This document shows positions 3,512-63,126 of a DNA stretch of 64,000 nucleotides, one piece after another. The DNA is taken from IMG/VR virus record IMGVR_UViG_3300008110_000042, positions 2,204 to 66,203 of that record; one strand, written 5' to 3'. The translations under genes and the position numbers were made by a program. The number at the start of each line of letters is the position of its first letter. The first letter of the stretch is position 1. The notes beneath the pieces were generated by a model that was given only the letters and a program-made list of their open reading frames with translations, was not told where the DNA came from and did not search any database. Source of the stretch: a virus. Taxonomy: Duplodnaviria; Caudoviricetes.

Positions 3512-3584
3512 TGGGTCGGGAGAGACTTGAACTCTCAACCAATTGATTAAAAGTCAACTGCTCTACCTATTGAGCTACCAACCC
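3512..3584 (-). tRNA. tRNA-Lys (UUU)
   Basis: GGGTTGG acceptor, TAGCTCAATAGGTAGAGC D-arm, anticodon arm GTTGA-CT-TTT-AA-TCAAT, T-loop GTTCAAG. Confidence 0.95.
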
Positions 3585-3587
3585 TAA

Positions 3588-3660
3588 TAGCACTGGTGGG
3601 AGTCGAACCCACACTTTATTGATTTTGAGTCAACTGTCTCTGCCTTTGGACTACAGTGCC
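3588..3660 (-). tRNA. tRNA-Leu (CAA) with short variable loop
   Basis: GGCACTG/CAGTGCT acceptor, anticodon arm GTTGA-CT-CAA-AA-TCAAT, T-loop GTTCGAC. Confidence 0.9.
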
Positions 3661-3744
3661 ATATAGATTCTATGTACCTTGGATGGGTCAAAGCCATCTG
3701 TATACATAGAATCCGTAATAAAAATGTACCAGTATTTCTTACAA

Positions 3745-3818
3745 CATCCCTGACAGGGATCGAACCTGTAGCCTATGACTTAGAAGGTCATTGCTCTATC
3801 CAGTTGAGCTACAGGGAT
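3745..3818 (-). tRNA. tRNA-Arg (UCU)
   Basis: ATCCCTG/CAGGGAT acceptor, anticodon arm ATGAC-CT-TCT-AA-GTCAT, GTTCGAT. Confidence 0.95.
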
Positions 3819-3823
3819 ATACA

Positions 3824-3899
3824 TGGAAGGGGCGGGAGTTGCACCCACATATTCACGCTTATAAGGCATGCGCTCTATCTACTTTTCAGCCACCCTTCC
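3824..3899 (-). tRNA. tRNA-Ile (UAU) with atypical T-loop
   Basis: GGAAGGG/CCCTTCC acceptor, anticodon arm CATGC-CT-TAT-AA-GCGTG, T-loop reads GTGCAAC. Confidence 0.85.
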
Positions 3900-5249: not shown

Positions 5250-5398
5250 TTAGTCTCCTGTAGTACTGTATCAGTAGCCCCAACCATTCGGCATGCAGCC
5301 GTAAGTGCTAGCGTTGGAGTTTCACCAGCACAGATTGGTTCCCATACGGGGTAATCATAGGTTAGAATCTGGGCCAACCATATATGACTGTCGTTCAT
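5246..5398 (-). CDS. hypothetical protein
   Basis: 3' part of the track ORF, starting at MNDSH. Confidence 0.45.
   Translation of the reverse strand: MNDSHIWLAQILTYDYPVWEPICAGETPTLALTAACRMVGATDTVLQETK
5271..5292 (-). promoter_or_regulatory. candidate phage RNAP promoter, copy 1
   Basis: GCCGAATGGTTGGGGCTACTGA; one of four co-oriented copies of a 22-bp motif. Confidence 0.7.
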
Positions 5399-7732: not shown

Positions 7733-8002
7733 TCAAGTACCGTACACAGAGACAGTCTGAACCCGTGCCATATAAGTAGCAACAGGTTGAATGTAATCAT
7801 CCGTAGTAACAATCACTACAAAGTCACTATGCCTTGCGTGTTCAATGTGAATGTGGAAGTTACCACCATCCGAATAGAAGTCACGCATGAGGATATAACT
7901 AATGGCCTCCACAATATCAGTATCATCCTTCTTATTCTCACCAAGGATGCACAGATTAAAGGGATTCTTACCATTCAAATCAGAGAGAGTAATGACTCGC
8001 AT
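7733..8002 (-). CDS. hypothetical protein
   Basis: ORF track; AGGAG RBS. Confidence 0.65.
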   Translation of the reverse strand: MRVITLSDLNGKNPFNLCILGENKKDDTDIVEAISYILMRDFYSDGGNFHIHIEHARHSDFVVIVTTDDYIQPVATYMARVQTVSVYGT

Positions 8003-8014
8003 TGTTATCTCCTA

Positions 8015-8107
8015 TTAAAGATTCTTATTCTCTTCAGCACACCAAAGAAGAACATACACACCAAAGATTCCAAGCAAAGCCACACCAATCAAAAGAAGTG
8101 TAGACAT
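8015..8107 (-). CDS. 30-aa single-pass membrane peptide
   Basis: Manual translation MSTLLLIGVALLGIFGVYVLLWCAEENKNL*. Confidence 0.5.
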   Translation of the reverse strand: MSTLLLIGVALLGIFGVYVLLWCAEENKNL

Positions 8108-8108
8108 G

Positions 8109-8357
8109 TCAAACCTTTCCCGGCATAGCCGGAGTGCTCATTCCTTCAAGATCCTTGCGGAGATTCTTGTTCTGTTCCATACAATCTTCTAGATCTTGAG
8201 CAAAGTAATTCATTGTCTGAAACATACACTCAAGAAGTCCGTGCTTATCTTCAGGAAGGGATTCCTTCAAACGAGAGTAGAAGATTTCCTGACAACCAAT
8301 GATCGACATAACAGTACGATCCTTAAAGTTAGATGAATGTCTAATTGCGATTGCCAT
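8109..8357 (-). CDS. hypothetical protein
   Basis: ORF track; AAAGGT RBS. Confidence 0.6.
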   Translation of the reverse strand: MAIAIRHSSNFKDRTVMSIIGCQEIFYSRLKESLPEDKHGLLECMFQTMNYFAQDLEDCMEQNKNLRKDLEGMSTPAMPGKV

Positions 8358-8372
8358 TGTATCATACCTTTC

Positions 8373-8654
8373 TTAGTTAGATTGGAGTTTCATAACTGCA
8401 CCCGAATCACCACGGGTAAGATGGCAAACCTTCACTTCCCGCTGCCTAACATAGACACCGGAGAGAGAACCACTGGCATAGAAGAACAAAGCATCTTCTC
8501 GCCATTCATTGTGCCAACCAACACAATCATCCTCACCAAAGAAGTCTTCATTCTTCAGCAAAGAAACAAGATGTGCTGGCGTAAAGGGAACGAAAGAAAC
8601 ACAAAGAACTTTGTAATCTTCCGAACCATCAAGACGAAACTCAACAAGTTGCAT
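8373..8654 (-). CDS. hypothetical protein
   Basis: ORF track; AAAGGT RBS. Confidence 0.6.
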   Translation of the reverse strand: MQLVEFRLDGSEDYKVLCVSFVPFTPAHLVSLLKNEDFFGEDDCVGWHNEWREDALFFYASGSLSGVYVRQREVKVCHLTRGDSGAVMKLQSN

Positions 8655-8844
8655 TGTCTTATACCTTTCTCGGCATTGCCGGATAGAGCATGTGGTTTAT
8701 GTCTATAGTTATTCCTTACGGAATAGTTGGAGTCCTCACACAAGATCCAACATCACAAGGTTTACCACAAACCCTAGTTACTTCCACAAACCCAAGGCAC
8801 ACAAAGAGGGTGCTACTTGTTGCACGGATAGTAACTATTCGACT

Positions 8845-9233
8845 GAAAGATATACCATAGGTTTCCCTACGATATACCGCTATGATAACACCGACAGGTT
8901 ACATAGTTAGCCTGTCTGCAAGTCCTATATAAACCATCAACACTAGGGACTAATCGTGTCGTGGGAAAGATATACCATAGGTTTCCCTATGATATATCAA
9001 CAGGCTTATGATTCAAATGCTAGTGACTACCTGTGGCGTATAGCAAGTATGTGCAATGTAACGCCCTGCACACTAGACGGTAGATTCGAGAGTCATTTAT
9101 TATAGAGTAGGATAAAGCGGTACTTACCATAAGAGATGCCTTTAGTGCATGTTATGGCAACACATAGCCATCCTACCCAGATTGTGTAAACTCTCAATCC
9201 AAAGGTATACCATAGGCTTCCCTAGGGTATACC
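8845..9233 (-). repeat. three copies of a ~33-nt hairpin repeat (about 8845-8878, 8965-8998, 9200-9233)
   Basis: Minus strand: G(G/A)TATA(T/C)C(G/A/C)TAGG-GAA(A/G)-CCTATGGTATA(T/C)C-TTT. Confidence 0.85.
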
Positions 9234-9239
9234 GAATAA

Positions 9240-9518
9240 TCAGTACCGACCACGAGCCATGCGATCCAAGTTAGGCATATGCCCATGAGTATCACTATGG
9301 CGTTCCTGCCACCTTCCAGACCGTTCTCGCGTAGACCATGTAGGAACATAGTCACGCATCCTGCGAACATCCTCAATCGTAGCATGAATACCACGATGTC
9401 GGTGAATGAACACCAAAGCATCAGATACTGATACTTTAGCAAACTTGGCAAGCCTAGGGGCAAGCGTAGCCGCATCGTTCACCGAACGGACATTCGCCAG
9501 ACAAACCGCTAGATTCAT
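9240..9518 (-). CDS. early hypothetical protein
   Basis: Start moved to MNLAV, 6 nt after GGAGGT; GC-rich codon usage. Confidence 0.6.
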   Translation of the reverse strand: MNLAVCLANVRSVNDAATLAPRLAKFAKVSVSDALVFIHRHRGIHATIEDVRRMRDYVPTWSTRERSGRWQERHSDTHGHMPNLDRMARGRY

Positions 9519-9533
9519 AGCCATACCTCCGTT

Positions 9534-9584
9534 GGGTATTCCATCGGATACCCTAGACCATCTAGGGTACCCGAAGGAATACCC
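9534..9584 (-). promoter_or_regulatory. long intergenic hairpin, candidate RNase III site
   Basis: ~24-bp stem with one G.U and one T-T on the minus strand, directly before an RBS, as with T7 early RNase III sites. Confidence 0.55.
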
Positions 9585-9609
9585 CGCGCCGTAGCACGGG
9601 GTAATCCAG

Positions 9610-9924
9610 TTAGCGACCGTCGAGCAAAGCATCCAACTTACCCTGCGCCGACCGCTTATTCACGACCTTGCCGATGTACATCGTACCGACAGCCTCCCAC
9701 ATGAGGCGCTTCGTTTCCTTATCCATGTGGGGAACCGAATCCATGACGATGTAGCAAGCGCACCGAACCTTGTTGCGGTAGTGCTTGTGATCATGGAAAC
9801 ATTCCATGCCGTACTTCACAACATCTGCGAACATATCCGGGCGAACTGCGCCGGAATTCCGCGTCTTATCAATGGCTTCCTTCACGGCGCCCCGGAGCAT
9901 CGTACCATTCGTAGTAGACATCAT
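9610..9924 (-). CDS. probable first early protein (hypothetical)
   Basis: Start moved to MMSTT after GAGGA. Confidence 0.65.
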   Translation of the reverse strand: MMSTTNGTMLRGAVKEAIDKTRNSGAVRPDMFADVVKYGMECFHDHKHYRNKVRCACYIVMDSVPHMDKETKRLMWEAVGTMYIGKVVNKRSAQGKLDALLDGR

Positions 9925-9960
9925 GTAATCCTCGCTAGATTGCGTACCGATACCCAACGC

Positions 9961-10014
9961 GGGTATCGGCTAGGATACACTAGGTTATCCCTAGTGTACC
10001 CTAGCCGATATCCC
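9961..10014 (-). promoter_or_regulatory. long hairpin upstream of the first early gene, candidate RNase III site
   Basis: ~24-bp stem GGGATATCGGCTAGGGTACACTAGG / CCTAGTGTATCCTAGCCGATACCC. Confidence 0.55.
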
Positions 10015-10129
10015 CTACGAAAGAACGCAGGGGATACCAGCCACGCGAATCAATCGCGGGATTATCCGGGCGAATATTGAGGAGGCGTGCGCCTTATCGG
10101 ATGTAGGCTACCCTTGAGGGTACTTTCCC

Positions 10130-10397
10130 GCCGTCTCCACGCATGGTGCTACCCATGAACAGAGCGGAACCTAGTCCATTTCCGTGACCCCATACTCATA
10201 CCTAGGCTAGTGAGCGTTGACAACGCAGACCTAGGTACCCCTTTGGGTACACCGTAGACTCACCGTTATACTCCGGGAGAGTAGCGTCTACGAGACTTTC
10301 ATACTAGACCGAGTGACAGCCTAGAGCGGATCGGTAGACTCCGCTATACACCGATGATCGCCAGACCTTACCGCTCTAAATACTGCGGGGAGGCGAC
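10130..10397 (-). ncRNA. candidate ~270-nt structured non-coding RNA
   Basis: 14-bp terminal helix, at least 6 internal hairpins, no ORF in the track, weak sigma70-like promoter just upstream. Confidence 0.55.
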
Positions 10398-10401
10398 CAC
10401 T

Positions 10402-10430
10402 ACACTACCGAACGCCGGAGCCGGATGGAA
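10402..10430 (-). promoter_or_regulatory. possible host sigma70-type early promoter
   Basis: TTCCAT-17 nt-TAGTGT; the predicted start coincides with the 5' end of the structured RNA; weak consensus. Confidence 0.3.
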
Positions 10431-10449
10431 TGCTAAAGCATCCCAGGGT

Positions 10450-10940
10450 TTGCGTCCGATAACATCGTGGGGGCGTTCCTAGATTATCGGACGATGCCTA
10501 CAGAGGTTATCGGACACGGGCTAGCAAGTCCGATAACTCTGGCCGGGGGTGACGGGGGGCGCGCAAGGGGGGATCAGGGGGGATACCCCTTCGCTAATTT
10601 TTGACCCCTAAGTCGATTTCTTACGGGAGCTGTGGTCCCTGCCTTGTTTCTAAGGGGGCTAGGATGCCTCAGGATTGATTATCTGATTGAGGTCCACCCT
10701 GCGGTCCCCTTGGGGTCCGGGGCCATCCCTCCGGTCAACTGGAGGGAAATCGACAAGGGATAAAACCGGGGGGTTAAACCCCGGAGTGCTTGTTCCTATT
10801 GGGTTATTATTGTTGTTGTAATTAACAAGGGATATACCTAGGTTAACCTAGGGGTCTTAGCTAAGACTATACACAACAATAATTAAAACTATAGGGGTTA
10901 ACAGCTAAGGGATAACCTAAGGTTATACTATGGTATATCT
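10450..10940. other. probable genome-end / terminal-repeat / packaging region
   Basis: Non-coding, between the last late gene and the first early gene; G-tracts followed by AATTTTT; perfect palindromes CCTAGGTTAACCTAGG and GTCTTAGCTAAGAC; promoter copy at its edge. Confidence 0.55.
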
Positions 10941-10962
10941 TCATTAGCCCCAACTATTCGGA
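10941..10962 (-). promoter_or_regulatory. candidate phage RNAP promoter, copy 2 (phiOR-like position)
   Basis: TCCGAATAGTTGGGGCTAATGA, just after the last late terminator. Confidence 0.7.
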
Positions 10963-10974
10963 ATACATGTCGAT

Positions 10975-11016
10975 AAAACAAATGGGGCTACCTAGGTTTC
11001 CCTAGGTAGCCCCCAT
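10975..11016 (-). terminator. intrinsic terminator after the giant gene
   Basis: GGGGCTACCTAGG-GAAA-CCTAGGTAGCCCC followed by ATTTGTTTT. Confidence 0.75.
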
Positions 11017-11019
11017 AGA

Positions 11020-14000
11020 TTACTCTAACAATTTGCCTAATTCTTCTGATACACCTCTCTGGTCGTAACCCATAGTCTTTTGTTTACCTAAGGCTTTTTC
11101 TGCTTGAGCTGTCTCCATCACATAGTTGCGTGGAGCTGGCTGATTAACATCCAGAGATATAGGACGGAACATAGTTCCGGCTTTCTTCTGGTATGGGTAA
11201 GGTTCTCTTTGAACCATATCCAAGTATTGTTGAATAGCATTCATTTCCTTAAATACCTGAGCATCTTCCAATACTCGTACTGGAATTGCTACTGGACTAC
11301 GATTAACTAGGGAGGTAGGGCCAAACAAGTTACTGGCTTCCTTAACAGCGTTTATTGAAAAGGGATCTTCAATAAGTCGCTGAGCACTTCGGAAGTCAGA
11401 CTCTAGTGTATTCATTCCTGCTCCAGCACCAGCTGGTAGGAAAGGTACACCATAGTACTTATAAGTACCACCTGTTAGACCAGCTACAGTGCTTACACCG
11501 GATTCAAGGAATCCGTTGTATAGACCAAGGAATGGAACTCTGGTTAATCCACGAAGAACATACTGGCTTGGTTGTTTATCAAGTTCTTCCATTATATCTT
11601 CTGTTTCACGACCAGCTAACCATTCTTTGAACAAGCCTACAATTGTATCCATAGCGGCATATAAGAATATACCACCAGCTAAATACTTAAGTGTGCTTCG
11701 TCCACCGTAATCAAGAATAACATTGTCCTGATAGGACTGTACCCAAGAAGTAAGAGCATACCACATTCTACCTAGGGCTGACTTAGAATCAAGAGAAGTC
11801 ATCTTGTTAAGTCCACCCAATTCAGATGTAGCTGTCTTTATAATTAGGTCTTCAACCATGAAGGCATAAGATGAAATAGCTGATTCCATTACATCCATAT
11901 CAATACCTTCTACTGGGTTGTTTCTAAGATCTTCATGGATATCCATTAGATCTAGAATGTTGACTCGGCCATCTCTATGGTTGGCTTTTTCCATTGCCCA
12001 CTTAAGATGTCGAATCTGTTCTTTAGTTGTCAAGCCATACTTTAAGAACAAGGCAGCTTCGTTTGCATCACCAAACTTTGCTGTATGTCTTGCAATACCA
12101 GCAAACTCCTTCCACAACTTGGCTTCAGCTTTGGCATCAGTAGCCGCAGCTTTCTTTAACTCAGCCAATTGGGAAGCAGTTGTAGTCTCAGTCAAGGCAT
12201 CAAATAAAGTCTCAACTCTACCCTTGCTAATATCCCTCCAGATCATTCTCTGGATTCGTTGCTTAGCTAGAGCGCGTGTACCATTTGTAATTGCCTGTAG
12301 AGAACCAATACTTTGCATCCATTTACCAGCTTCTTCCAAAGTTCTGGTTCCTTTTTCCAAAGCACCTACACCATTCTTTACATTGATTATAGTGTCGTTT
12401 ACACGAGTTCCAAATCTTGAATCAGATTTGAATGCACCATATCCAATCTCTCCCATATATCTATTAGCTAGATCTGTACGGAAGCTTTCAAGAATAAAAG
12501 TCATGTCACCAATATCAGACTCCAATAGCTTTCGCTTTGAAGCACGATAATCAGCTAGGACATAACGCATAGCCTTAATAATGTTTTTTGGTATTGTATA
12601 TAACTCAGGACTTTGCTTAGCCAACTCAGTCATGGTTTCAGTGAAAGCTGAAATACCATAACCAGCGGAGAACTTAAAGCGGATTGCTGCCAATCCAATT
12701 CTAGCTGAGTGTCCTGTCTCTGACTTTAGATATGGCAAGGTATCAGCATTAAACTGATACTCTTCATACAATCTATTAAGACCTTCTTCCAAACTATTCT
12801 TTGCTGTTCGTAGTTCAGCTTCTGACCAGTCCTGATCCTTTGACAGATTATCAAAGCTATCATAAGTTTTCTTACGAACATAATTAAATACATCTAGAAT
12901 AGTAATACCTGTCTTACCTAACATTCGGTCAAGTTCTCTCTGGAATGCTAGCTCAAAGTATCTACCCTTTAGGAAATAGAAGTAAGCCTCTGCAAGATTA
13001 GTTCTAAGGATAGCCTTAGTCTCGGGAGTACTAAACATCTCTTCTGGGGTTAATCCCTTGATTGGTAATATAGTCTTACCTTCTGGATCTAACTTAAAGA
13101 AAGGTTGGTTATAAATAGAGTTAAAGTCTTTAGTGCTGTTATAGGGATAACTCTTAGTTTTAAACTTAAGCATCTCTTCCATCTCAACACGAACTAGATT
13201 TCTACCATCTAGTTTCTTTCGCCACTTCTCTATGTACATCGCAGTGTCTCCTTGGATAGCTGCTATGTACTTGGTCTTATCATGTGGAGCAAGATCTGTA
13301 ACTCTTTCTGGAATACGATAAACAGAATATCTGTCATCAAATTCCAATACAAAGTATTTCTCTGGATTACTCTTTCTAAGGAGTTTTAGAATATCAGATT
13401 TCTTTCCAGAGATTCCAGACTTAGTGATATCGCTCTCATGTAACTTTTGTAAAGTATCTAAACTAAACATATTAGCTGCTTCTGAATAAGTGATGGTTCT
13501 ATCAGGAGCAAATATATTTAATGTCTGGTCTTTCTCGTTGTATTCAACATCGAGCCAGCCCAAGACAATCAATGTATTGATGTCTAGTTTATCGTCCTTT
13601 AACTTTCTATTTGTGCGAACTTCTACTAGTTTATCCAGTAGATTACTACGAGCAGCCCTGTCTCTCATTATAGATTCAAGACCTTCGTGATCAACTTGCG
13701 TTGGTGCAAAGACATCAGGAGATATTGGATTACCATCTGCATCTACAGTTAACAAACGACCTGTGTTTGTTTCTAGATCCAGAATGTTTTTGTTTGCCAA
13801 TCTAGCAGCTTTTAATAATAGAGATAGTTGTTTTGTTATTGGCTCAGCATACAATGCTGGAATACCAAGAGCAACTATATCTGCTTTATTAGGCTGTTTG
13901 TTTGTAAACAAAGTTTCATAAGTATATATATCAAGTTGTGCTTTTTGATCATTAGTCATGCGTGGCATGATTGTATTGATTTTAGCATACTCTTTAAATA

Positions 14001-17000
14001 TACGGGTAATCAATCTACCTTCTTCACCTCTGAGTTGCATTGCTGTCTTAAAGGCAGTCTTTCCAGCACCTACCAAATGTCCTGTTTGAGTCTTACGATC
14101 ATCAAAGAAACGAGACACAAACGAAAGTAGTGGAGCAACACTTCGCAGAGTATCACCTTGTCGTGATCCATTCTGTGTTGCATTCACACTCTTGTTCATT
14201 AAGTTTTCCCACCATGTTCGACTATCTCTTTGGTTTCCACCAAAGATTGCTCCAACAAGATTGTTAACTCTTAGTAAACGAGAAGTACCACTCTCTACAT
14301 TATTGATTGCATTCTCAATAACTTTTTCATTTGGTAACTCAGGCTCGGGTGCTGTTGGTTCTGGTGGAATCTCAGCTTCTTTAATATCTTTAATAACAGC
14401 ATCTGTTGATGGAGGACCGGGAATCTTTGCGTCTATTCCGGCTTCATCAATCAAGGATTTAACCTTTTTTGTTTTGCCGTTTAAACGATAATTACCTGCT
14501 TCATCTACTTTAGTAAATACAATATCTTCAGGCAATACAGGAATTACAAATTCTGGTTTGCCTTCAATTTGAATTTCTTTTGCTGCTTTATCTAAGAGCT
14601 GACGATAGGTAAGTGGTTTCTTTCCTGCTGGTCCTTCAGTTACTTTTACTCGTAATGAATCAGACACATACAATCTATCAACCGCTTGCCAGAACTTTGT
14701 CAGTATATCTTCACCAAGCACACGCTTATTTGCATCAGCAATAAACTGATTTACATTTACATAGTGTGACCAAAGCATTTCAAACATTGGGGTGACAGTC
14801 TCTGAGCCATCTGGTTCAACCTTTGATTCCCAATATTTCTTTAGGAACTTTCGGAGGAATCCAGAATCCATTCCAGAAACTCTTAGCAACTCAATGTCTT
14901 CATTAAACTTGCGTTCAATCTTTTCTGCTTTAGTTGTTTCAACAACATCAGTTGGAATTTCTTTGACAGTTGCAACTATCTTCTCAATAGTTGGTAGTCT
15001 AGTTTCTCCAGTTGGTACTGTTGTTGTTTTAGATTTTGGTTTTCTTGGTACTCTAATTTTTTTAGTAGCAACAGGTAAACCTTCTTTTTTCTGTTTAGGT
15101 GCATCTATTCTTGGTCTGTTAATAACATTTATAACAGGGGTATTATCAGCAGCCTTTGCAATCTCTAACATCTTAGGTTGTTCAGGCACAGCATCAATTA
15201 CAGTTGCTCCTAACACTGGCAGATCTGAAGTTGTTAAAGGAATAACAGAACCATCTTTAAATACTAAAGCATCAGAACCAATTCTACTTGCTGTCTTTTT
15301 TACACTTTCAAGTTTTACTGGATCTGCTGAAAGTATATCAGCTGACTCAACATCCATCTTCAATGGACGCTTTGGAGTAAAGCCGATAGCTTCTTTCTTA
15401 CCAGAGTTTGTTCCATTGAGAATAGCATCAACTTGTTTAGCAGGACGAATAGTTTGTTCTGGCTTTTTACCAGTAATAGTTTCTTCTGTTGCTCTAAATA
15501 GTGATGCTTCTGTTTCTGGAATAGTAGGAGTTGCTAGTGACTCTGGATTCTTATTCTTTAAGCTTTCAGCTAAAGCTTGAGTCTGTCGTATACGCGAACC
15601 AGCTTCAACAATTGTTCTTTGTTTCGTAACTGGTTGAACTCTTGTAGTATTTTTAATTTCCTTATTTGCTTTTTCTGCATTCTTTCTTGATTCTTCAATA
15701 GCTTTCTTTTTATCATTATCTAGTTCACGAAGCTTTTGTCCAGCTTCATTTAGAGTTGATTCAAGTAGTTTATGCTTAGCAACTTCTTCAGTAATAAAAA
15801 GTTTTAGGGTGTTTAGTCTAGCAGTAATAGCAGCTCTCTTAATAGCTTTTCCAAACAGCTTTTCAGATTGTGCTGCTACTTTAGAGTCTGTACCTAAAGC
15901 AAGTTTTGCTTTTAATAAAGATACAGCTTCAGGCGTTAACCAACTACCATTAGATGCTTCATGCCACTCTAAAGCTTTTTGTAAATAGACATCACTAAGT
16001 TCTGCTTTACCTAGTTTCTTTTTCTCATACAAATTAGCTAGTCTATTAGTTTGTACTGGCTTTTCATTTGTGCCTTCATCAGAATCAACATTGAGTCTTC
16101 CAGCTCTTTGGTCTTTTCTTTCTTGATCTTTAGTTGCATTCTTACCAGTGGTTGTTAAATAAGCCATTAGATTATTAATAGTAGCAATATCACCATTAGC
16201 AACTGCTAGTTCTAAAGATGCTGTTCTCTTTTCACTTACCTGAATGACAGTATAAGCGTCTATTAAATCTGGACGAAGAGTTATAACTTTAATCAAAGCT
16301 TCTTCTAAGTTATCAGTAGTCACTACTTCTGAGAGTTCACTAGCAGCTTTTTCTTCTGACTTTAACTTTGTTGCTGAAGTAGACTCAGCTGCTTTCTTTC
16401 TTTTTGACTTTGTTGTAGGTTTGTTTATTACCCACTTACCAGATCCTTTGGTTTGCTTTACTTGATCGGTATTAATCATATCATATAAAGTACCAATGAA
16501 TTCTTCAGGTGATTTACTACCAGTCAAAATTTTATTTACAATAGCTTCATCTATATTAGCAGCCGCTACTTTAACTAATAGACCTATGTCAACTTTGGTA
16601 TCTTTTAACATTACAATATTAGCTAAAGCATCTTCTTTATTTTGCCATCTTACAATATCTTCAGCTGGAGTATTATCTCCATCTAGTTTATTGAATAATG
16701 GTAGACCGTCTTTTAGAATAGCCATTCGCATTTCATCTGTAATAGGTAGATAAGGCTGTTTACCTATGCCATTAACTTCTTGTAGTTTTACAGAGGTTTT
16801 ATATTTCTTGCCAATTTTGTTAGCAACTTTTACCATTATGTTTTCATAGAACTCTAGATAACCAGTAGCACCAAACAACATAGTCCCACCTTCTTCAGAT
16901 GGTTTTATAACAAAAGGTTCAAATACATTATCACGACTACTATCTGTAATCTCTTTAGCTTTTGCTTTACCTACATAATTATGCAGTTCATTTGCAGAAA

Positions 17001-20000
17001 TATCATCGAAGTTTCGTTTATTACCAGATTTTTCATCAATAGTTATATCGTAAGAACCAAGATAATTTTTAGTTACAAAAATTTCAGAAACATTATCAAT
17101 TATAATTTTGTTATAACGATCAGCTTGTTGTTGTCCTGTAGTCCAAGCAACACCATCAAAGCCATGCTCTACAGCATACTTTAACATGCGTTTGAATATC
17201 AAACCACCCCATGCTTCTGATGATTTAAAAGGAGCTAAAGGTAATAGATCTGGATCTATAAGATTAAGACCTTCATTTAATGCTGTTAAGTCATCTAACT
17301 CTCTTGCTAAAGTACTTTCATATGTGAATAAAAAGTCTAATTCCTCAATATGCTGTTTATATGGTTTTACATTAGGTAAAACATCAGATGGCAATTTAGA
17401 CATTAATTGCTGCTTTAAAAAGTATTTAACTAAAACAAGAGCATCTGCTAAGTCTTTAGGTTCTTTTATTAGTTTTAATTCTAAATTCATTCTACTTATT
17501 ATATTGTCAACACTACTACTACGATAGCCGTATGCAAACGAAGAAGAATATTTAAATAAAGGATGTTGACTTATACTAATAATGTTATTGCCCATACTAT
17601 AAACAATATCTTTTGCTTTTGTCATTCCAGTAAGATCAAAATTACCTTCTGGAAATATAGCACCTACTCCAACTTCTTGTGAGCCATCAGCTATATCATA
17701 TAAAATATGTGCAGTAGAATCATTAAATGCATAGTTATTGTCCATAAGATCAAAAGTTTTATTACGAATAACAATATAAACTGGTTGTGTTATATCAACT
17801 CCATACGCATCAATAGATTGTTTAGATTTCCACGCTTTTTTAATTTCATCAGCATTAAAAGAAAGCTCAAACAATATATTATACTTATCTAGTTGTTGTG
17901 TTTTAGTTGAAAATAATTTATCAGGTAGTTCAGTATTAGAAAGTTTTACTTCATTATCCATAATTTTTTTTATATCAGGAACAATTGTATCTAATCTTTC
18001 ACTAACTTCTTTTATTCTCTGTTCGTTGTTAACAAACTCTTCAGGTTTTTCTGGTGTATCTTTAGGACGATAACCTTTTTCGTTTCCTTTTTGATGCCAA
18101 TCGCTTTGAAATTCTTCACCAAATAAAACTTTAAAGTTTTCTGGAGTATATCTAGTATTAGCACGACCATGTACAACAACATTTGTTACTGGAGTGTTAT
18201 TACCATGCCAGCCTCCTTCCCAATGTGTCATACCACTTTGTAATTCAATATCAGGAAATCTAATTAAGAATTCTCTTTGATCTTCACCATTAGGTAAAAC
18301 TAAAGTTTCGTGTTGATATTTATCCCAGATAGTATGACCACCGGGTAGTGGCTTTTCTATTGTTTCTCTATAAGGTGCAAATAAATCTAAGATAGCACTC
18401 TGAATATTTTCTGGTAATTTATCTAATTCGGTTTTAAGATATTCTTCAACTTGATTAAAAACAGTACTATAAACCTGAGCGCGTAATTCTTTATTTCTGA
18501 AATAAGGATATAATTCAGGTTGTTCTCTCATTAATCTTTCTTTAGGTAAATTATTGCCCCATAAAAGTGATTCATTAGCTTTAATTACATTTTCAGCAGT
18601 TACTTTACCATATTTAGATTCAGGTATTACTTCTTCAGGATAGAAAGTTGTAGCTTGCTCTTTACTAGTTACAAATTCAATATTATCTTTACTTGAATTA
18701 ATTAGATTACCATCTTTTAATTTTACATATTCCATACCACCAAAGACTTCTGACTTTTCAATATTAGCTGCAATAAACTCTTTAATGGCTGCAATAAGAA
18801 GCGGCCAATTATCTTTATCTGTTATTTCTGCTTGTTTTTCTAAAGCGTATTCTCCTAGCTTTTTAAAAAACAAAGGATCTCTAAGTGTTTTAGAAACAGG
18901 AATAACGCTAGAAGGAAATACAATTGTTTTGTAAGTTTTACCGCCGCTACTAGTAACTGAATCAGTTATTGGAAGTGTATCTGTTTTAATAAAATCGTGT
19001 ACTAAAACTCTTGAAACATTTTTCGTAGAATGAACTATTGTTGTTTCCGAGCCTTTAATAACTTCTTCTATTTTAACAGGTTTAATAATAGAAATAAGTG
19101 TATTTAAATCTACTTTAGCATCTTCAGGTAATGCATCCATATATTCTTTTAGACCAGTCCATTCAATCTCTTCTTGTTTAATACTACCCTTAACCAACAA
19201 AGCAGCAAGTTGTTGCTTTGTCATTGTTCTTTGTGGATTAGTCTTTATTGTTTCAACAAGACTAGAATAGAATGTAGACAACATCAATTCTTTTTGCGGT
19301 GTTGTGTTAAACGAAATATCAAATAGTTTATTTGAAGGATCATCAAAGCCTAAAATAAAAGCGGCTCTTCCAAGAAGACCAGTAACACTAGCCATTTCAC
19401 TTAAACCATTTTTCTCTAATCTATCTCTAACCAAATCTAAAATAGAATTATTAAAGTATTCATTTGAGCTAACAGTCTGTAGCAAGTTTGCTCTGTCTTC
19501 AACAGACATAAGATCTTTATTAGTAAAAGAAACAAAATCATACTTAGGATCTAATACAGGTTTTGCTTTACTACCAAAGACAGTCTTATCAAATAGAGGA
19601 TCTGAAGCAACTTCAAACAAACGCTTACCTGTAGTAACTAAGTAAGCATAGTCATACTTACCTTCAGGAATCTTTTCTTTCTTTGCATATTGTTCAAACA
19701 CATCAAGGATCTTAAGTGAGCGTTCTTCATAAGTAGCTGGAATAGCTCCCATGTTTCTTCGCTCAGCGCTGATTGAGAAGAACTGTTCTTTAAAGTATTT
19801 TAGTCTTTCTTCGGTAGTCATGTTAATAAACTTATCGTAGTCTTTAGCTGACTCAAAGAAATACATTACTTTATAAAGAAGAGAGTTAGTCTGTGTCTTT
19901 TTATATTCAGAGTAAGCTTCAACAAACATATTAAAATGTTTGCCTATTCTACCACCAGAATCAATTGCAGATAGCCCTTGGCTTTTAACTATAGTCATAG

Positions 20001-23000
20001 CAGCTATCATAGCTGGATCAAAGTATTGACCATTCATCAAGAATTCATACTCACCTCTAGTAAGCATGTACTTGTCATTGATTCCTTTTTTATGGATTAT
20101 TGTAGCAAACTCACGCGCATTAGTAGCAAACTTAGTATAGCCACCAGTTAACTGTGCAGATCTTGCAAAGACTTCATTTAACTCATGGACAGATAATGTT
20201 TGATCTGCCATTTGTTTATTGATGTTTGTAATTTCTTTTACAAGAGCACTAGCAGTATCATAAAACTCAGAACTATTTAAAATCCTAGTTGCGACTAGAA
20301 CTGCTTTCTGAATATCTAATAAAATAGATTTAGTCCAAGAGACATCTATTGGATTCATCTGTTGTATTATTGTTTCAGCTTCTGTTAACAATACTTTTGA
20401 AAAAGTCTGTACAAAAAATTCTTCAGCATTTATTAAATGATAAGTACTTAAGAATCTTTCGTTTAACATAGGATCATCTAGCTTTAAGGTAGATTTAAAA
20501 CCCTTGTCTTGAACAAGAGCCATACCAAAAGATGAAACAGCTTTGTTGTATAACTTAAGATTTGATAAATAGATATTACCTGTAGCTCTTGATTTAAAAT
20601 AAGCGTGACCTATCTCATGTAGGATAGATCTAATGCGCTGATTTGATCTTGCTTTTGGAGATAGGAAATAACCAAAGTTTGCATTAAGTGTAATCTTCTT
20701 CTTATCATATTCCCATTTAGCAACAGTAGAAGCATCGCTTACTATTGACTTTGTTCCAGTAACTTCATCTGTCTTTACTGTTGTCATTTTTTCTACACCA
20801 AACTCAAGGAATGGAACATCACTAAAGTTTAGATGAACAACAGAAGCAAATAAAAGAATACGATCTTCGCTTGTAAGCATGGAGTTAGTTACAAGACTGT
20901 CAACATAGTCTGCAAACTTTTTAGCGGAGTCTTTGCTACCTGAAACAATAGAAACAAAAGCATTTGATACATCTGCTTTGTTATCATTTAGATATTTAAT
21001 CTTAGCTACTCTATCTTTATCAACCTTTGCAATATTAATTGCGTTTCTAATTTGCATTGATAGAGCGTTAAAAATAGTTTCTTTGCGTTCCTTAGCTCCA
21101 GCAATATCTCTTACGGCATTCTCAGTTGTTTCACTGATTTCACCAGTAAGCTTTGCTTCTAAAATAGCAGCATCAACAACATCAGAAGCTTCTGTTGGAA
21201 TACCAGCTTTTACAGTCGCTTCTCTTTCTGGAGAGGTTGCAGCAGATTCAATAGCTTCAAGTAACTTATGAGCTGCTTCTTCTGCCGCTACTTTTCTTTC
21301 AGCTGCTGGCTTTGCTGTGTCTCTTGCTTCCTTAATTAGATCAGGAATATTACGCTGAGATCTTTTTTTTAATCCTTCTAGTTCTGCCTTAAGTGCCTTA
21401 TAACGATCTGAACCTAGACGCTTACGAAGTCTAAAAAACTCTCCCTTGCGTTGTCTTTCTAGTTCTTCATAGACACGCTCTCGTTCTTTTGGTAGACCAA
21501 CAGCTTCTGTTTCTACCTTCTTGGCATCTTCTAGAAACTTCTTACCAGCAAACAAGACACGCATTTTATCAGATACTGACATTTGATCAAAGACTTCACC
21601 AGACTCAATAAATCGCTCAGAGCCTTCATTATTAGTACGACGAGCAAACTCAGTCATTACTTCATGTATATTTCTAAAGACACGATTAGGCGCTGCTCTA
21701 GCAATATATTCTGCTGTAGTTTCATTCTCATATCGGCGTGTACCTACATCTTCTGGTGTTGATCTAGCTACTTCAGGAGAATTCAAAGCTTCTCTTGTTT
21801 CAACACGATCAACTCTTGCTTCAGTTTCGGTTGCCATTTTTTCTGCAGTAATATCAGTATTTTCAATTACTGCTTCTTTAGCTAGCTTTTCTGGAACTGG
21901 AGCATCAATGATTGGCTTTTCAGGCTTCTTCATAAGACCAGAAATATTATCAATTGTATTACCTAGTGGAGTTCCTTCAAGGGTAAGACGCTTATCCAAT
22001 GAGTTTCTAAGCCCACGACCAGCATCAATCTCTACGCCTTGCACTCTGTTTCTAACAGCACCAACACCACTGCGTAACAATCCACCACCAAGACCAAACA
22101 CACCACCAAACGCCAAGCCTTCTTCTAATGCTGTTGTAGCAATCAAAGAAGCATTATAATCAGTGAGTGCGTATGGGTTGGCGTATAGAGTTGCAGCACC
22201 AAAGGCAATTTCTCTTTGCTGTCTAGCATACTCAGCTAAGCCACCTTGTACTGCTCCGAATGTAAACGCAGCAGCAGCTCCACGCAGCAAACCAAAGTTA
22301 CTTACATAACTAGGCATAATGCCAAGTGGTAGTTTATAAAGTGTTTCAGTTGTGTAAGCAGTTGCCCTTAAAGCCTTACCAGCAACAGATGCAGAATCAT
22401 AGACACGCTTTAAGCGCATAAACAAAGATGTCCCACCTAAAGCAGTGGCTGTTGCTTCTGCTGCCATAACACCACCAGCTAAACCAGCGGCGGTTCCTAC
22501 TCCCGGAACAAGAGATCCAATGGCTGTTGTAATACCAGCTAATGCCAACTCAGCACCAATACTTGGAATAGTGTCAGGGCTATTAATCATACCTCCAACA
22601 AGACCATCTCGGAATAAACGAACATAGTCTAGTGTTGTTGGTTTGTATGTTCCAATTCTTTTTTGAATGTCAGTAACATTTAGCTGATGCATGATACGAA
22701 TCATTGCATGGTCAGCATTTGGAGAATCACTTACAAAAGAAGAATCAATACCATTTTCTAATAGATATTGATTTACAATTGGATTTGAAAACTTACTTGA
22801 AAACCAATTATTTGGTTCAAAGTTTGGGTCTTCTCTTGCCATAATCTTTTCAATATCTTTTGTATCTCCAGCTAATTCTGTATCAGAGAATGAACTAGTA
22901 ATTCCAAACAAATCTTGAGCGACAAATTGATCGAACCAGTTAAAGCCTAGCTTTTCATCAGCTTTGCTTTGTGCTTCTGCATACAAAAGCTTTGTTGAAA

Positions 23001-23484
23001 TATCTCTAATTTGTTTCTGTCTATCAGTAAGTTCGTCATAAGACAAACCACTAAGATCCTGTAACTGCTCGGCTTGAAGCATCATGTCTAGATTTTTTCT
23101 ATCGACATCTAATGCTTCTGTGGTAAGCTCGCTATCCCCATAGCGCATTGGGGATAGCGGAGCCTTACCGATTAATTGTCGCCATGCAGCACCCTTAGTA
23201 GGATCATTAGCAATACCAAGAAGACCGTCTGATACGCCAGTGAGATTTCCTTCTAATGAGCCTAAAGCCTGAGTCAAAGCATAAAACTGATTATAGGTTT
23301 CGACCTTCTTAATGTCACCCTTTACATATGAAAGAGGATCAGTAAGACGCGCTGGGTCTAAAAATTCTAAATTATCTCCGTCATAAGCAGCTAATACTTG
23401 GGCTGGTCTATAAGCATTTAGTTGGAGTAAACCAGCTGATGGTTTCTCCGAACCTATAGGAAATCCTTCTGAGTAATTTAACAT
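11020..23484 (-). CDS. giant internal virion (ejection) protein, gp16-like position, multi-domain
   Basis: 4154 aa; last of the internal-virion run; Gly/Ala hydrophobic segments near both ends; HEIGH and EEFQSDWHQ motifs. Confidence 0.8.
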   Translation of the reverse strand: MLNYSEGFPIGSEKPSAGLLQLNAYRPAQVLAAYDGDNLEFLDPARLTDPLSYVKGDIKKVETYNQFYALTQALGSLEGNLTGVSDGLLGIANDPTKGAAWRQLIGKAPLSPMRYGDSELTTEALDVDRKNLDMMLQAEQLQDLSGLSYDELTDRQKQIRDISTKLLYAEAQSKADEKLGFNWFDQFVAQDLFGITSSFSDTELAGDTKDIEKIMAREDPNFEPNNWFSSKFSNPIVNQYLLENGIDSSFVSDSPNADHAMIRIMHQLNVTDIQKRIGTYKPTTLDYVRLFRDGLVGGMINSPDTIPSIGAELALAGITTAIGSLVPGVGTAAGLAGGVMAAEATATALGGTSLFMRLKRVYDSASVAGKALRATAYTTETLYKLPLGIMPSYVSNFGLLRGAAAAFTFGAVQGGLAEYARQQREIAFGAATLYANPYALTDYNASLIATTALEEGLAFGGVFGLGGGLLRSGVGAVRNRVQGVEIDAGRGLRNSLDKRLTLEGTPLGNTIDNISGLMKKPEKPIIDAPVPEKLAKEAVIENTDITAEKMATETEARVDRVETREALNSPEVARSTPEDVGTRRYENETTAEYIARAAPNRVFRNIHEVMTEFARRTNNEGSERFIESGEVFDQMSVSDKMRVLFAGKKFLEDAKKVETEAVGLPKERERVYEELERQRKGEFFRLRKRLGSDRYKALKAELEGLKKRSQRNIPDLIKEARDTAKPAAERKVAAEEAAHKLLEAIESAATSPEREATVKAGIPTEASDVVDAAILEAKLTGEISETTENAVRDIAGAKERKETIFNALSMQIRNAINIAKVDKDRVAKIKYLNDNKADVSNAFVSIVSGSKDSAKKFADYVDSLVTNSMLTSEDRILLFASVVHLNFSDVPFLEFGVEKMTTVKTDEVTGTKSIVSDASTVAKWEYDKKKITLNANFGYFLSPKARSNQRIRSILHEIGHAYFKSRATGNIYLSNLKLYNKAVSSFGMALVQDKGFKSTLKLDDPMLNERFLSTYHLINAEEFFVQTFSKVLLTEAETIIQQMNPIDVSWTKSILLDIQKAVLVATRILNSSEFYDTASALVKEITNINKQMADQTLSVHELNEVFARSAQLTGGYTKFATNAREFATIIHKKGINDKYMLTRGEYEFLMNGQYFDPAMIAAMTIVKSQGLSAIDSGGRIGKHFNMFVEAYSEYKKTQTNSLLYKVMYFFESAKDYDKFINMTTEERLKYFKEQFFSISAERRNMGAIPATYEERSLKILDVFEQYAKKEKIPEGKYDYAYLVTTGKRLFEVASDPLFDKTVFGSKAKPVLDPKYDFVSFTNKDLMSVEDRANLLQTVSSNEYFNNSILDLVRDRLEKNGLSEMASVTGLLGRAAFILGFDDPSNKLFDISFNTTPQKELMLSTFYSSLVETIKTNPQRTMTKQQLAALLVKGSIKQEEIEWTGLKEYMDALPEDAKVDLNTLISIIKPVKIEEVIKGSETTIVHSTKNVSRVLVHDFIKTDTLPITDSVTSSGGKTYKTIVFPSSVIPVSKTLRDPLFFKKLGEYALEKQAEITDKDNWPLLIAAIKEFIAANIEKSEVFGGMEYVKLKDGNLINSSKDNIEFVTSKEQATTFYPEEVIPESKYGKVTAENVIKANESLLWGNNLPKERLMREQPELYPYFRNKELRAQVYSTVFNQVEEYLKTELDKLPENIQSAILDLFAPYRETIEKPLPGGHTIWDKYQHETLVLPNGEDQREFLIRFPDIELQSGMTHWEGGWHGNNTPVTNVVVHGRANTRYTPENFKVLFGEEFQSDWHQKGNEKGYRPKDTPEKPEEFVNNEQRIKEVSERLDTIVPDIKKIMDNEVKLSNTELPDKLFSTKTQQLDKYNILFELSFNADEIKKAWKSKQSIDAYGVDITQPVYIVIRNKTFDLMDNNYAFNDSTAHILYDIADGSQEVGVGAIFPEGNFDLTGMTKAKDIVYSMGNNIISISQHPLFKYSSSFAYGYRSSSVDNIISRMNLELKLIKEPKDLADALVLVKYFLKQQLMSKLPSDVLPNVKPYKQHIEELDFLFTYESTLARELDDLTALNEGLNLIDPDLLPLAPFKSSEAWGGLIFKRMLKYAVEHGFDGVAWTTGQQQADRYNKIIIDNVSEIFVTKNYLGSYDITIDEKSGNKRNFDDISANELHNYVGKAKAKEITDSSRDNVFEPFVIKPSEEGGTMLFGATGYLEFYENIMVKVANKIGKKYKTSVKLQEVNGIGKQPYLPITDEMRMAILKDGLPLFNKLDGDNTPAEDIVRWQNKEDALANIVMLKDTKVDIGLLVKVAAANIDEAIVNKILTGSKSPEEFIGTLYDMINTDQVKQTKGSGKWVINKPTTKSKRKKAAESTSATKLKSEEKAASELSEVVTTDNLEEALIKVITLRPDLIDAYTVIQVSEKRTASLELAVANGDIATINNLMAYLTTTGKNATKDQERKDQRAGRLNVDSDEGTNEKPVQTNRLANLYEKKKLGKAELSDVYLQKALEWHEASNGSWLTPEAVSLLKAKLALGTDSKVAAQSEKLFGKAIKRAAITARLNTLKLFITEEVAKHKLLESTLNEAGQKLRELDNDKKKAIEESRKNAEKANKEIKNTTRVQPVTKQRTIVEAGSRIRQTQALAESLKNKNPESLATPTIPETEASLFRATEETITGKKPEQTIRPAKQVDAILNGTNSGKKEAIGFTPKRPLKMDVESADILSADPVKLESVKKTASRIGSDALVFKDGSVIPLTTSDLPVLGATVIDAVPEQPKMLEIAKAADNTPVINVINRPRIDAPKQKKEGLPVATKKIRVPRKPKSKTTTVPTGETRLPTIEKIVATVKEIPTDVVETTKAEKIERKFNEDIELLRVSGMDSGFLRKFLKKYWESKVEPDGSETVTPMFEMLWSHYVNVNQFIADANKRVLGEDILTKFWQAVDRLYVSDSLRVKVTEGPAGKKPLTYRQLLDKAAKEIQIEGKPEFVIPVLPEDIVFTKVDEAGNYRLNGKTKKVKSLIDEAGIDAKIPGPPSTDAVIKDIKEAEIPPEPTAPEPELPNEKVIENAINNVESGTSRLLRVNNLVGAIFGGNQRDSRTWWENLMNKSVNATQNGSRQGDTLRSVAPLLSFVSRFFDDRKTQTGHLVGAGKTAFKTAMQLRGEEGRLITRIFKEYAKINTIMPRMTNDQKAQLDIYTYETLFTNKQPNKADIVALGIPALYAEPITKQLSLLLKAARLANKNILDLETNTGRLLTVDADGNPISPDVFAPTQVDHEGLESIMRDRAARSNLLDKLVEVRTNRKLKDDKLDINTLIVLGWLDVEYNEKDQTLNIFAPDRTITYSEAANMFSLDTLQKLHESDITKSGISGKKSDILKLLRKSNPEKYFVLEFDDRYSVYRIPERVTDLAPHDKTKYIAAIQGDTAMYIEKWRKKLDGRNLVRVEMEEMLKFKTKSYPYNSTKDFNSIYNQPFFKLDPEGKTILPIKGLTPEEMFSTPETKAILRTNLAEAYFYFLKGRYFELAFQRELDRMLGKTGITILDVFNYVRKKTYDSFDNLSKDQDWSEAELRTAKNSLEEGLNRLYEEYQFNADTLPYLKSETGHSARIGLAAIRFKFSAGYGISAFTETMTELAKQSPELYTIPKNIIKAMRYVLADYRASKRKLLESDIGDMTFILESFRTDLANRYMGEIGYGAFKSDSRFGTRVNDTIINVKNGVGALEKGTRTLEEAGKWMQSIGSLQAITNGTRALAKQRIQRMIWRDISKGRVETLFDALTETTTASQLAELKKAAATDAKAEAKLWKEFAGIARHTAKFGDANEAALFLKYGLTTKEQIRHLKWAMEKANHRDGRVNILDLMDIHEDLRNNPVEGIDMDVMESAISSYAFMVEDLIIKTATSELGGLNKMTSLDSKSALGRMWYALTSWVQSYQDNVILDYGGRSTLKYLAGGIFLYAAMDTIVGLFKEWLAGRETEDIMEELDKQPSQYVLRGLTRVPFLGLYNGFLESGVSTVAGLTGGTYKYYGVPFLPAGAGAGMNTLESDFRSAQRLIEDPFSINAVKEASNLFGPTSLVNRSPVAIPVRVLEDAQVFKEMNAIQQYLDMVQREPYPYQKKAGTMFRPISLDVNQPAPRNYVMETAQAEKALGKQKTMGYDQRGVSEELGKLLE

Positions 23485-52881: not shown

Positions 52882-53641
52882 TAGTATCTCCTAGGGTTTG
52901 TTCTTCAGTAGCCCCAACTATTGGGCAATATAGTTTTACCTGTTTAGTAGCCTTGTCGTACTCACCATCCCGTAGGATGCGGACAGATCGGGCCATAGCC
53001 AAACAGTAATCATAATCATATTTACCGCCATCTGCGGTCTTAGCTTGGTCATAAGCTGCCAGTACAGCAGCCGACCAGTTCCGGGGGTGGACATACTTAA
53101 GCCACTTCTCAGCCTTAGCTGGCCCCCACTTCCAGATACCGGGGATATTATCGGTCGTATCCCCGGTAATCCACTGCTTGTGGAAGTTATAGTCAGCAGT
53201 GTAATCATCTACCATATCTGGTGTATGTTCCTTGTCAGGATTCCAGTGCCACCCCGGTACAGACTTGAGATCTTTATCAATGGTAACAGCTATCCCCTTA
53301 CCAGAAGAAGCCATAAGTCCCATAATATCATCAGCCTCTAGCCTTGGTACTGTCAGAATGTCATGCTCTTTGATAAGCTCAAGAGCGTAGTCCATGCAAT
53401 CTGGGGTCTGTTTACGCACATCACGATGTGCCTTATAGGGTTCCCAGAAGTCCCGTCTGTAGTTATCCTTGCGGCTACAAGACATGGCAATGTAGACCTT
53501 CTTCATTCCCATTGGTGTCCAAGCCTTAACATCATGGGATAGCCGTTCTTCTAGATACTCAACACCTTCTTGATCAGCCCAGAAAGCAGCACGGTAACAC
53601 AAGATATCTCCATCTAGAACAGCAACATCAGGTCTTTCCAT
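52871..53641 (-). CDS. 5'-3' exonuclease (gp6-like)
   Basis: LDGD, YKAHR, LEADD, DKDL and GDTTDNIPG. Confidence 0.92.
   Translation of the reverse strand: MERPDVAVLDGDILCYRAAFWADQEGVEYLEERLSHDVKAWTPMGMKKVYIAMSCSRKDNYRRDFWEPYKAHRDVRKQTPDCMDYALELIKEHDILTVPRLEADDIMGLMASSGKGIAVTIDKDLKSVPGWHWNPDKEHTPDMVDDYTADYNFHKQWITGDTTDNIPGIWKWGPAKAEKWLKYVHPRNWSAAVLAAYDQAKTADGGKYDYDYCLAMARSVRILRDGEYDKATKQVKLYCPIVGATEEQTLGDTNGY
52905..52926 (-). promoter_or_regulatory. candidate phage RNAP promoter, copy 3
   Basis: GCCCAATAGTTGGGGCTACTGA, in the 3' end of the exonuclease gene ahead of dut/nrdJ/structural genes. Confidence 0.7.
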
Positions 53642-63104: not shown

Positions 63105-63126
63105 TCTGTAGCCCCAACCATAGGGC
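63105..63126 (-). promoter_or_regulatory. candidate phage RNAP promoter, copy 4
   Basis: GCCCTATGGTTGGGGCTACAGA; intergenic, ahead of the SSB/replication block. Confidence 0.7.

Follow-up and report, generated by a model that had tools for sequence, protein, structure and literature searches.

A promoter-like motif with a conserved start sequence at the right end of an uncultured T7-like phage genome, and its complementarity to early-leader hairpins

Directly past the terminator of the last gene of an uncultured phage, we found a promoter-like motif followed by a 15-nt sequence, GAAGATATACCATAG, 14 nt of which are the exact complement of the 3' arm of hairpins in the early leader. We hold with moderate confidence that the motif is a promoter placed like phiOR of phage T7, that its conserved start sequence is an arm of the same hairpin family, and that the complementarity reflects family resemblance. 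A first-pass annotation of the same DNA had read these elements as a repeat and its anti-repeat. That interpretation is partly supported: the complementarity is exact in this phage, and a conserved repeat/anti-repeat function is not supported by the sequences of relatives.

The DNA analysed (64,000 nt; hereafter the window) comprises bases 2204-66203 of a 66,203-nt viral record with a completeness of 98%, and carries all of its long ORFs on the minus strand. The genes for primase/helicase, DNA polymerase, ribonucleotide reductase, portal, major head protein, tail proteins and large terminase are T7-like in both content and order, and an 823-aa ORF encodes a single-subunit RNA polymerase (RNAP; PF00940, E 1e-83), the N-terminal part of which is matched by phrog_414. 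The last two ORFs (1415 aa and 4154 aa) have no convincing family match in Pfam or PHROGs, nor, for the giant one, among PDB sequences. The source is an uncultured T7-like podophage, and the window covers most of its genome. Identity to the proteins of any isolate does not exceed 28% for the RNAP and 32% for the portal. A DNA search of 8000-12000 against isolated phages and an Rfam search of 8000-11500 (E up to 1) gave no match, and the sequencing runs holding the stretch are mostly labelled freshwater or lake. For this deep-branching, uncultured freshwater group, which is without close isolates, the analysis provides a candidate consensus for its promoters, together with a right-end promoter whose invariant start sequence is unusually long and a covarying class of RNA hairpins punctuating the early leader.

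The 4154-aa ORF (11020-23484, minus strand) closes the late operon; its matches in Pfam, PHROGs and PDB sequences are weak and at most at chance level, and its C-terminal 600 aa recur with 65-81% identity in six viral contigs. The early region also holds a cluster of four tRNA genes (3512-3899, minus strand; Lys-TTT, Leu-CAA, Arg-TCT and Ile-TAT).

The promoter-like motif and the invariant 15-mer

In the 66,203-nt record GTTGGGGCTA has four exact copies (starts 63118, 52918, 10954 and 5284), none of which is on the plus strand. A Shine-Dalgarno-like sequence lies closely downstream of three of them, with an ATG visible in two cases. The copy at 10954 is flanked on one side by the terminator hairpin that follows the 4154-aa ORF (11013-10984) and on the other by a long stretch of non-coding DNA (Table 1). 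Three relatives carry the motif 4, 4 and 3 times, in each on a single strand, and the reversed pattern, used as a control, was found 0 times. Scanning viral contigs with the longer form AATAGTTGGGGCTA returned at least 120 matches, and many of the matches listed precede a ribosome-binding site (RBS) and ATG; the known relatives are absent among the matches listed, which would represent other promoters of related phages. A scan with GTAAGTACCGCTTT returned 115 stretches, none of them relevant.

As is typical of T7-type promoters, a motif of ~20 nt recurs upstream of genes on the coding strand of a phage that encodes a single-subunit RNAP. The layout CTA-NN-GA(A/T)(G/A) is reminiscent of CTATA-GAAGA of the SP6 promoter, a likeness that would place the start at G10942. 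From the recurrence of the motif and the likeness to SP6 we infer promoter activity: it is plausible that GTTGGGGCTA serves as a promoter for the phage's own RNAP, and likewise plausible, by analogy, that a transcript beginning GAAGAUAUACCAUAG starts at ~10942. The first-pass annotation had placed a transcription start at the same position; the motif does end just upstream of 10942, and the start itself is assigned by analogy. In one relative, an RNA-library contig ends ~2 nt inside the predicted start (counted from a 63-letter loose end) and continues through the terminator-like hairpin; such contigs cannot show transcription starts and may stem from DNA carry-over, and stretches without RNA-library cover were given no weight. 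A further likeness to the promoter noted earlier, GGAATAGTTGG at 8720 on the plus strand, was treated as chance (5 matches at up to one mismatch against 1.16 expected).

Table 1. Positions of the promoter-like copies, the 15-mer, the right-end leader and the hairpins in the window
Feature	Position	Strand	Remarks
Promoter-like AATAGTTGGGGCTA plus two variable bases	10943..10958	-	Candidate single-subunit-RNAP promoter after the last gene, phiOR-like position
Second promoter-like copy, AATAGTTGGGGCTA	52909..52922	-	20/22 identical to the right-end copy; RBS and ATG ~25 nt downstream
Promoter-like copy	63109..63118	-	Followed by GATATAC-T-GTATATC, another start-proximal hairpin from the same word
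Promoter-like copy	5275..5284	-	RBS and ATG downstream
15-mer GAAGATATACCATAG ("anti-repeat")	10928..10942	-	Predicted first bases of the transcript; 5' arm of a local hairpin
Predicted 5'-terminal leader hairpin	10911..10939	-	Transcript nt 4-32; 9 pairs, one bulge (window)
Conserved leader, ~186 nt	10757..10942	-	Ends in a terminator-like hairpin; fold z-score -3.1
Leader-end hairpin CCGGGG...CCCCGG	10784-10766	-	Invariant; followed by TTTTAT; called by the terminator consensus scan
H1, GGTATATCGTAGG-GAAA-CCTATGGTATATC	8849..8878	-	13 bp, GAAA loop, 3 G-U pairs
H2, GATATATCATAGG-GAAA-CCTATGGTATATC	8969..8998	-	13 bp, GAAA loop, 1 G-U pair
H3	9204..9233	-	GAAG loop, one C-T mismatch; begins 6 nt past a small gene's stop codon
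Terminator hairpin of the 4154-aa ORF	10984..11013	-	13-bp stem, GAAA loop, T-run; same class as H1-H3; called by the consensus scan

The relatives compared comprise six IMG/VR loci retrieved with the C-terminus of the giant protein (65-81% identity), one more viral contig and fourteen metagenome contigs. In eighteen of these the sequence extends upstream past the conserved leader hairpin, which gives 14 distinct leaders when the window is counted. The arrangement GTTGGGGCTA-NN-GAAGATATACCATAG is present in 18/18; the two bases before the 15-mer vary (AT, CA or TG), and the sequences diverge directly after it. At the other end of the leader, the hairpin consists of six pairs invariant in 14 sequences, and TTTTAT or a close variant follows the stem.

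The 15-mer matches the 5' arm of H2 at 11/13 positions. Full-length minimum free energy (MFE) folds of the 14 distinct leaders all give it local pairing, with 7-11 of its 15 nt engaged and a partner no further than nt 66. This partner depends on the lineage, and by eye there are about four layouts: the window has GAUA(U)ACC...GGUUAUC, the L004 group GAUAUAC-CAUA-GUAUAUC and the L005 group GAUAU(A)CCAUAGG...CCUAUGGAUAUC, and the partner is ...CCUAGGAUAUC in the L008 group. RNAalifold, applied to the 14 leaders, paired the 15-mer with UGUGUAUAGUCUU; nevertheless every pair was invariant, and the result is thus no evidence for that pairing. A purely structural role does not fully account for a 15-mer that is invariant in spite of its changing local partners, so that something appears to read the sequence itself; this is what gives weight to two alternatives, pairing in trans and a protein that recognises the specific sequence on DNA or RNA.

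The early-leader hairpins and their complementarity to the 15-mer

The three exact copies of AAGATATACCATAG recorded in the first-pass annotation were recovered at 8847-8860 and 8967-8980 on the plus strand and at 10928-10941 on the minus strand, the last directly after AATAGTTGGGGCTA-AT. With one mismatch, an additional copy lies at 9202-9215 (plus strand), and with two mismatches at 11442 (plus strand) and 29148 (minus strand). Read on the coding (minus) strand, the exact plus-strand copies represent the 3' arm of H1 and H2 plus two tail bases.

H1-H3 belong to a wider class, which we defined as 30-nt stretches in which a GAAA or GAAG loop is preceded by AGG, GGG or GAG and at least 12/13 positions are pairable. 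The window and seven relatives contribute 19 distinct sequences to this set, three of them late-operon terminators. In these examples 98.4% of the cells are paired and both sides have changed in 11/13 pairs; no shuffle out of 500 scored as high, and slid controls were 30-54% paired. As the rows were pre-selected, the percentage paired is partly built in, whereas the covariation is not inflated. G-U pairs are frequent, in the sense-strand reading only, indicating that the hairpins act as RNA or as that single strand rather than as duplex palindromes. In several relatives the last class hairpin lies, by eye, 30-50 nt upstream of the RBS of the first early gene, a position that makes these hairpins leader elements rather than efficient terminators. 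H1-H3 do not qualify as intrinsic terminators, as only TTT(C) follows the stems and the consensus scan made no call.

Nine relatives hold both a class hairpin and the 15-mer, and in each we scored the ungapped match of the best 3' arm to the 14-mer. The complement is 14/14 in L006, L140 and L148, 13/14 in L008 and L135, 12/14 in L136 and L138, and 11/14 in L137, and in L004 no complement was found within three ungapped mismatches. L144, from whose locus the promoter DNA is absent, scored 13/14, and five further loci had no class hairpin in their 2,024-nt flank. All arm changes are compensated inside the hairpin, as in L137 (GGTATCCCACGGG/CCTGTGGGGTATC), and none is accompanied by an altered 15-mer. 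The more distant L055 has the same promoter and leader layout and also carries a class hairpin (GGTATACCGTAGG-GAAA-TCTACGGTATATC), and its start sequence is different; its longest complement is 5 nt, and its best duplex reaches -11.6 kcal/mol against -17.0 kcal/mol for the hairpin. The arms of the hairpins thus drift while the 15-mer remains constant, and the complementarity does not co-vary but decays among relatives that keep the hairpins, an outcome that the first-pass annotation had itself named as refuting its reading.

In the window, the duplex between 15-mer and arm is predicted at -19.3 kcal/mol, compared with -15.9 kcal/mol for H1 and -16.9 kcal/mol for H2. We also cofolded each hairpin with the 5'-terminal 40 nt of the leader, using 20 shuffled 15-mers as controls. 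The net gain with H1-H3 in the window (-6.2 to -8.8 kcal/mol) went beyond all 20 controls, and the same was true of only 1/9 relatives (L148, -14.3 kcal/mol); the gains of the others (-0.7 to -6.2 kcal/mol) fell inside the control range. The pairing with the repeat hairpins suggested by the first-pass annotation is accordingly predicted to be favourable for H1-H3 in the window, and it is not general: the gains in the window and L148 indicate that trans pairing is physically possible there, and by these folding models it is not a conserved property.

Competing readings and known systems

Under the preferred reading, the phage's own RNAP would use a promoter directly past the terminator of the last gene, in the position of T7 phiOR, and the right-end transcript would start at ~10942 with GAAGAUAUACCAUAG. 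Belonging to the promoter and start region would keep the 15-mer from changing, and the same bases would double as the 5' arm of a start-proximal hairpin resembling the standard class (13-bp stem, GAAA tetraloop, sense strand). A single hairpin class would then supply both the late-operon terminator and H1-H3 of the early leader. Because any 5' arm of a family complements any 3' arm of that family, the 14-nt match to H1 and H2 would be a resemblance by common descent, with no selected trans-pairing. The short leader itself may serve priming or packaging, as for T7 phiOR, or may form an RNA-stabilising stem-loop at the 5' end. More generally, complementarity among hairpins of one family can mimic a repeat/anti-repeat pair.

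At up to two mismatches, AAGATATACCATAG has six matches against a mean of 0.85 in 100 shuffles, none of which reached six. Exact inverted 14-mer pairs, by comparison, number 22 in the window against a mean of 14.9 and a maximum of 25 in 30 first-order Markov simulations, and at least one arose in 5.2% of 2000 simulations of the 2.3 kb from 8700 to 11020; an exact inverted 14-mer by itself is not rare. What sets it above chance is how well it is conserved and how closely it resembles the family, rather than how long the match is. Since the 15-mer is invariant in 18/18 relatives, resembles a family 5' arm, and finds an exact or near-exact complement in several lineages, a fortuitous match between two unrelated AT-rich elements is very improbable. 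A true anti-repeat would be of a different nature: the 5' end of the right-end RNA would pair with the 3' arms of the early leader, in trans or, on concatemers, in cis, opening the hairpins and changing termination, processing or translation of the early transcript. If genuine, this would be a new kind of RNA-based early-to-late switch. The exact complement in the window, L006/L140 and L148, the stability of the duplex relative to the hairpins, the cofolding gains for 3/3 window hairpins and L148, and the constancy of the 15-mer despite its changing local partner are all in keeping with it. Nevertheless, we regard it as unlikely, as (i) the arms differ at 1-3 positions in L008, L135, L136, L137, L138 and L144, and at more in L004, next to an unchanged 15-mer, (ii) the same arrays hold class hairpins with unrelated arms, whose duplexes with the 15-mer reach only -4.5 to -5.0 kcal/mol, (iii) the cofolding controls were beaten in a single relative of nine, (iv) L055 keeps the hairpin without the 15-mer, and (v) only 2/14 complementary bases lie outside the stem, leaving almost no toehold.

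The 15-mer, together with words such as GGTATAYC, could instead be recognised as duplex DNA by a protein of the phage, such as a terminase, a regulator or an initiator of replication, and the inversion would then reflect the geometry of a site near the genome end. We give this a small but appreciable probability. GGTATA[CT]C occurs 10 times in the record, nine of them within 8700-11020; the leader contains perfect palindromes and is, by eye, ~90% identical to that of L004, compared with 73% for the neighbouring protein; four GTCCGATAAC repeats lie nearby in both orientations; and the contigs of several relatives end, by eye, in the adjacent C-rich tract. On the other hand, the arms vary freely with compensation and carry G-U pairs on one strand only, which points to selection on RNA or single-strand folding, and no candidate binder was found, the two small neighbouring ORFs having no family matches. 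The shared protein-binding site in both orientations that the first-pass annotation also put forward, taken as a site on duplex DNA, fits the hairpins poorly given these features of their arms and stems. It is attractive to speculate, improbable as it is, that in some lineages (the window, L148) the 15-mer is the sequence-specific 5' seed of a small phage-RNAP RNA that invades early-leader hairpins and switches termination, processing or translation; acting once the phage RNAP appears, such an antisense seed would be a timing switch not described for T7-like phages.

The elements involved are of known kinds: leader hairpins on the one hand and, on the other, a T7-type promoter whose start is conserved. 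Like T7 phiOR (see also Chung and Hinkle 1990), the right-end copy would be a promoter for the phage's own RNAP that lies after the last gene and points to the genome end or junction; here, in contrast, the motif sequence is new and the RNAP shares no more than 28% identity with its counterpart in any isolate. T7-type promoters share with this motif a conservation extending into the first transcribed bases and an occurrence in few copies on one strand. The conserved start region of T7 reaches about +6, and the 15 invariant start bases found here are longer than is usual. In T3 and T7, pausing of the polymerase at the concatemer junction starts packaging, and at the left end the terminal repeat is accompanied by host promoters, by phiOL and by an RNase III site ahead of the first gene (PMC3276506).

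With CRISPR/tracrRNA systems the region has in common a repeated, partly palindromic unit and a nearby inverted partial copy able to pair with it. However, three copies of 32 nt (84-100% identical, 120 and 235 nt from start to start) do not make an array; the complementarity is 14 nt long, shows no co-variation and is not kept across the nine relatives; and the repeats are stand-alone 13-bp hairpins of the terminator's class. No Cas-like match was found among 20 ORFs scanned against PHROGs and Pfam, which matched phage replication or structural families or nothing.

As sense-strand RNA hairpins at gene ends and in leaders, H1-H3 and their class are comparable to terminators, stabiliser stem-loops and the early RNase III sites of T7. 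One member, with a T-run, ends the late operon as an intrinsic terminator would, whereas H1-H3 have AU-rich stems followed only by UUU(C); 13 bp is short for RNase III. Phage N4 similarly has one to three hairpins opening its early region and a giant virion-size ORF. Its hairpin promoters have stems of 5-7 bp, compared with 13 bp here, and the non-template (sense) strand is the only one on which the present hairpins fold well; A-C mismatches would arise on the other. We rejected an N4-type hairpin promoter because of this sense-strand folding and because comparison of the giant ORF with Pfam, PHROGs and PDB sequences brought up no RNAP.

Neighbouring elements of the early leader and the genome ends

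Several additional elements were observed around the hairpins. The early leaders of L004 (~9920-9950), L149 and L027 contain hairpins of a second type, in which the 8-nt loop TGAAATAT is conserved and the arms vary with compensation. Between H3 and the next hairpin, a unit of ~123 nt (9081-9203, minus strand) is predicted to form three stacked stems. Both-side changes occur in 13/35 of its predicted pairs, in an alignment of four sequences only (window, L008, L136 and L148), all of which keep GUAAGUACCG and AUAAAUGA invariant; the unit has no Rfam match. A covariance model built from it recovered, among 16 sources, those four and a truncated copy in L138, and a scan with a longer pattern returned only the contig of L008. 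On these structural predictions the unit is a candidate for a new structured RNA of the early leader.

Two RNA-library runs from different studies each contain one contig that is at least 99% identical to this region (10069-10313 and 10069-10298). Both stop at 10069, which a DNA run crosses. The stretch 10069-10313 folds no better than shuffles on either strand, and blastn of 10330-10051 against the relatives detected no similarity. It may correspond to an abundant early-leader RNA, an abundance that contigs cannot prove.

G+C content is 50-52% across 9000-11000, compared with ~40% elsewhere. Two large inverted repeats (9534-9584 and 9961-10013; 24-nt arms, 92% complementary) lie just upstream of two small GC-rich ORFs (~9926-9610 and ~9521-9240) with no family match. 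Four copies of GTCCGATAAC, one with a mismatch, are found in both orientations within 84 nt (10454-10537); the window has seven matches against 1.6 expected, and similar repeats occur in L004, L055 and L027. They are possibly iterons of an origin or a packaging site.

Adjacent C-rich tracts (10530-10600) contain five or six consecutive C. At least four relatives (L005, L007, L139 and L146) have contigs that, by eye, end in or near the matching tract, and the contigs of a DNA run also break at 10530-10600; the tract is either a physical genome end or a stretch that is hard to sequence. As DNA-run contigs break at several places, the genome ends are not deducible from them, and the IMG/VR end class, "linear" for all five relatives compared, is uninformative on physical ends. 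The motif CCGGCNATGCCGRGAAAGG, a small hairpin with an RBS, precedes two early genes (8114-8132 and 8664-8682, minus strand), and it also precedes the first early gene in L008, L135, L136 and L148.
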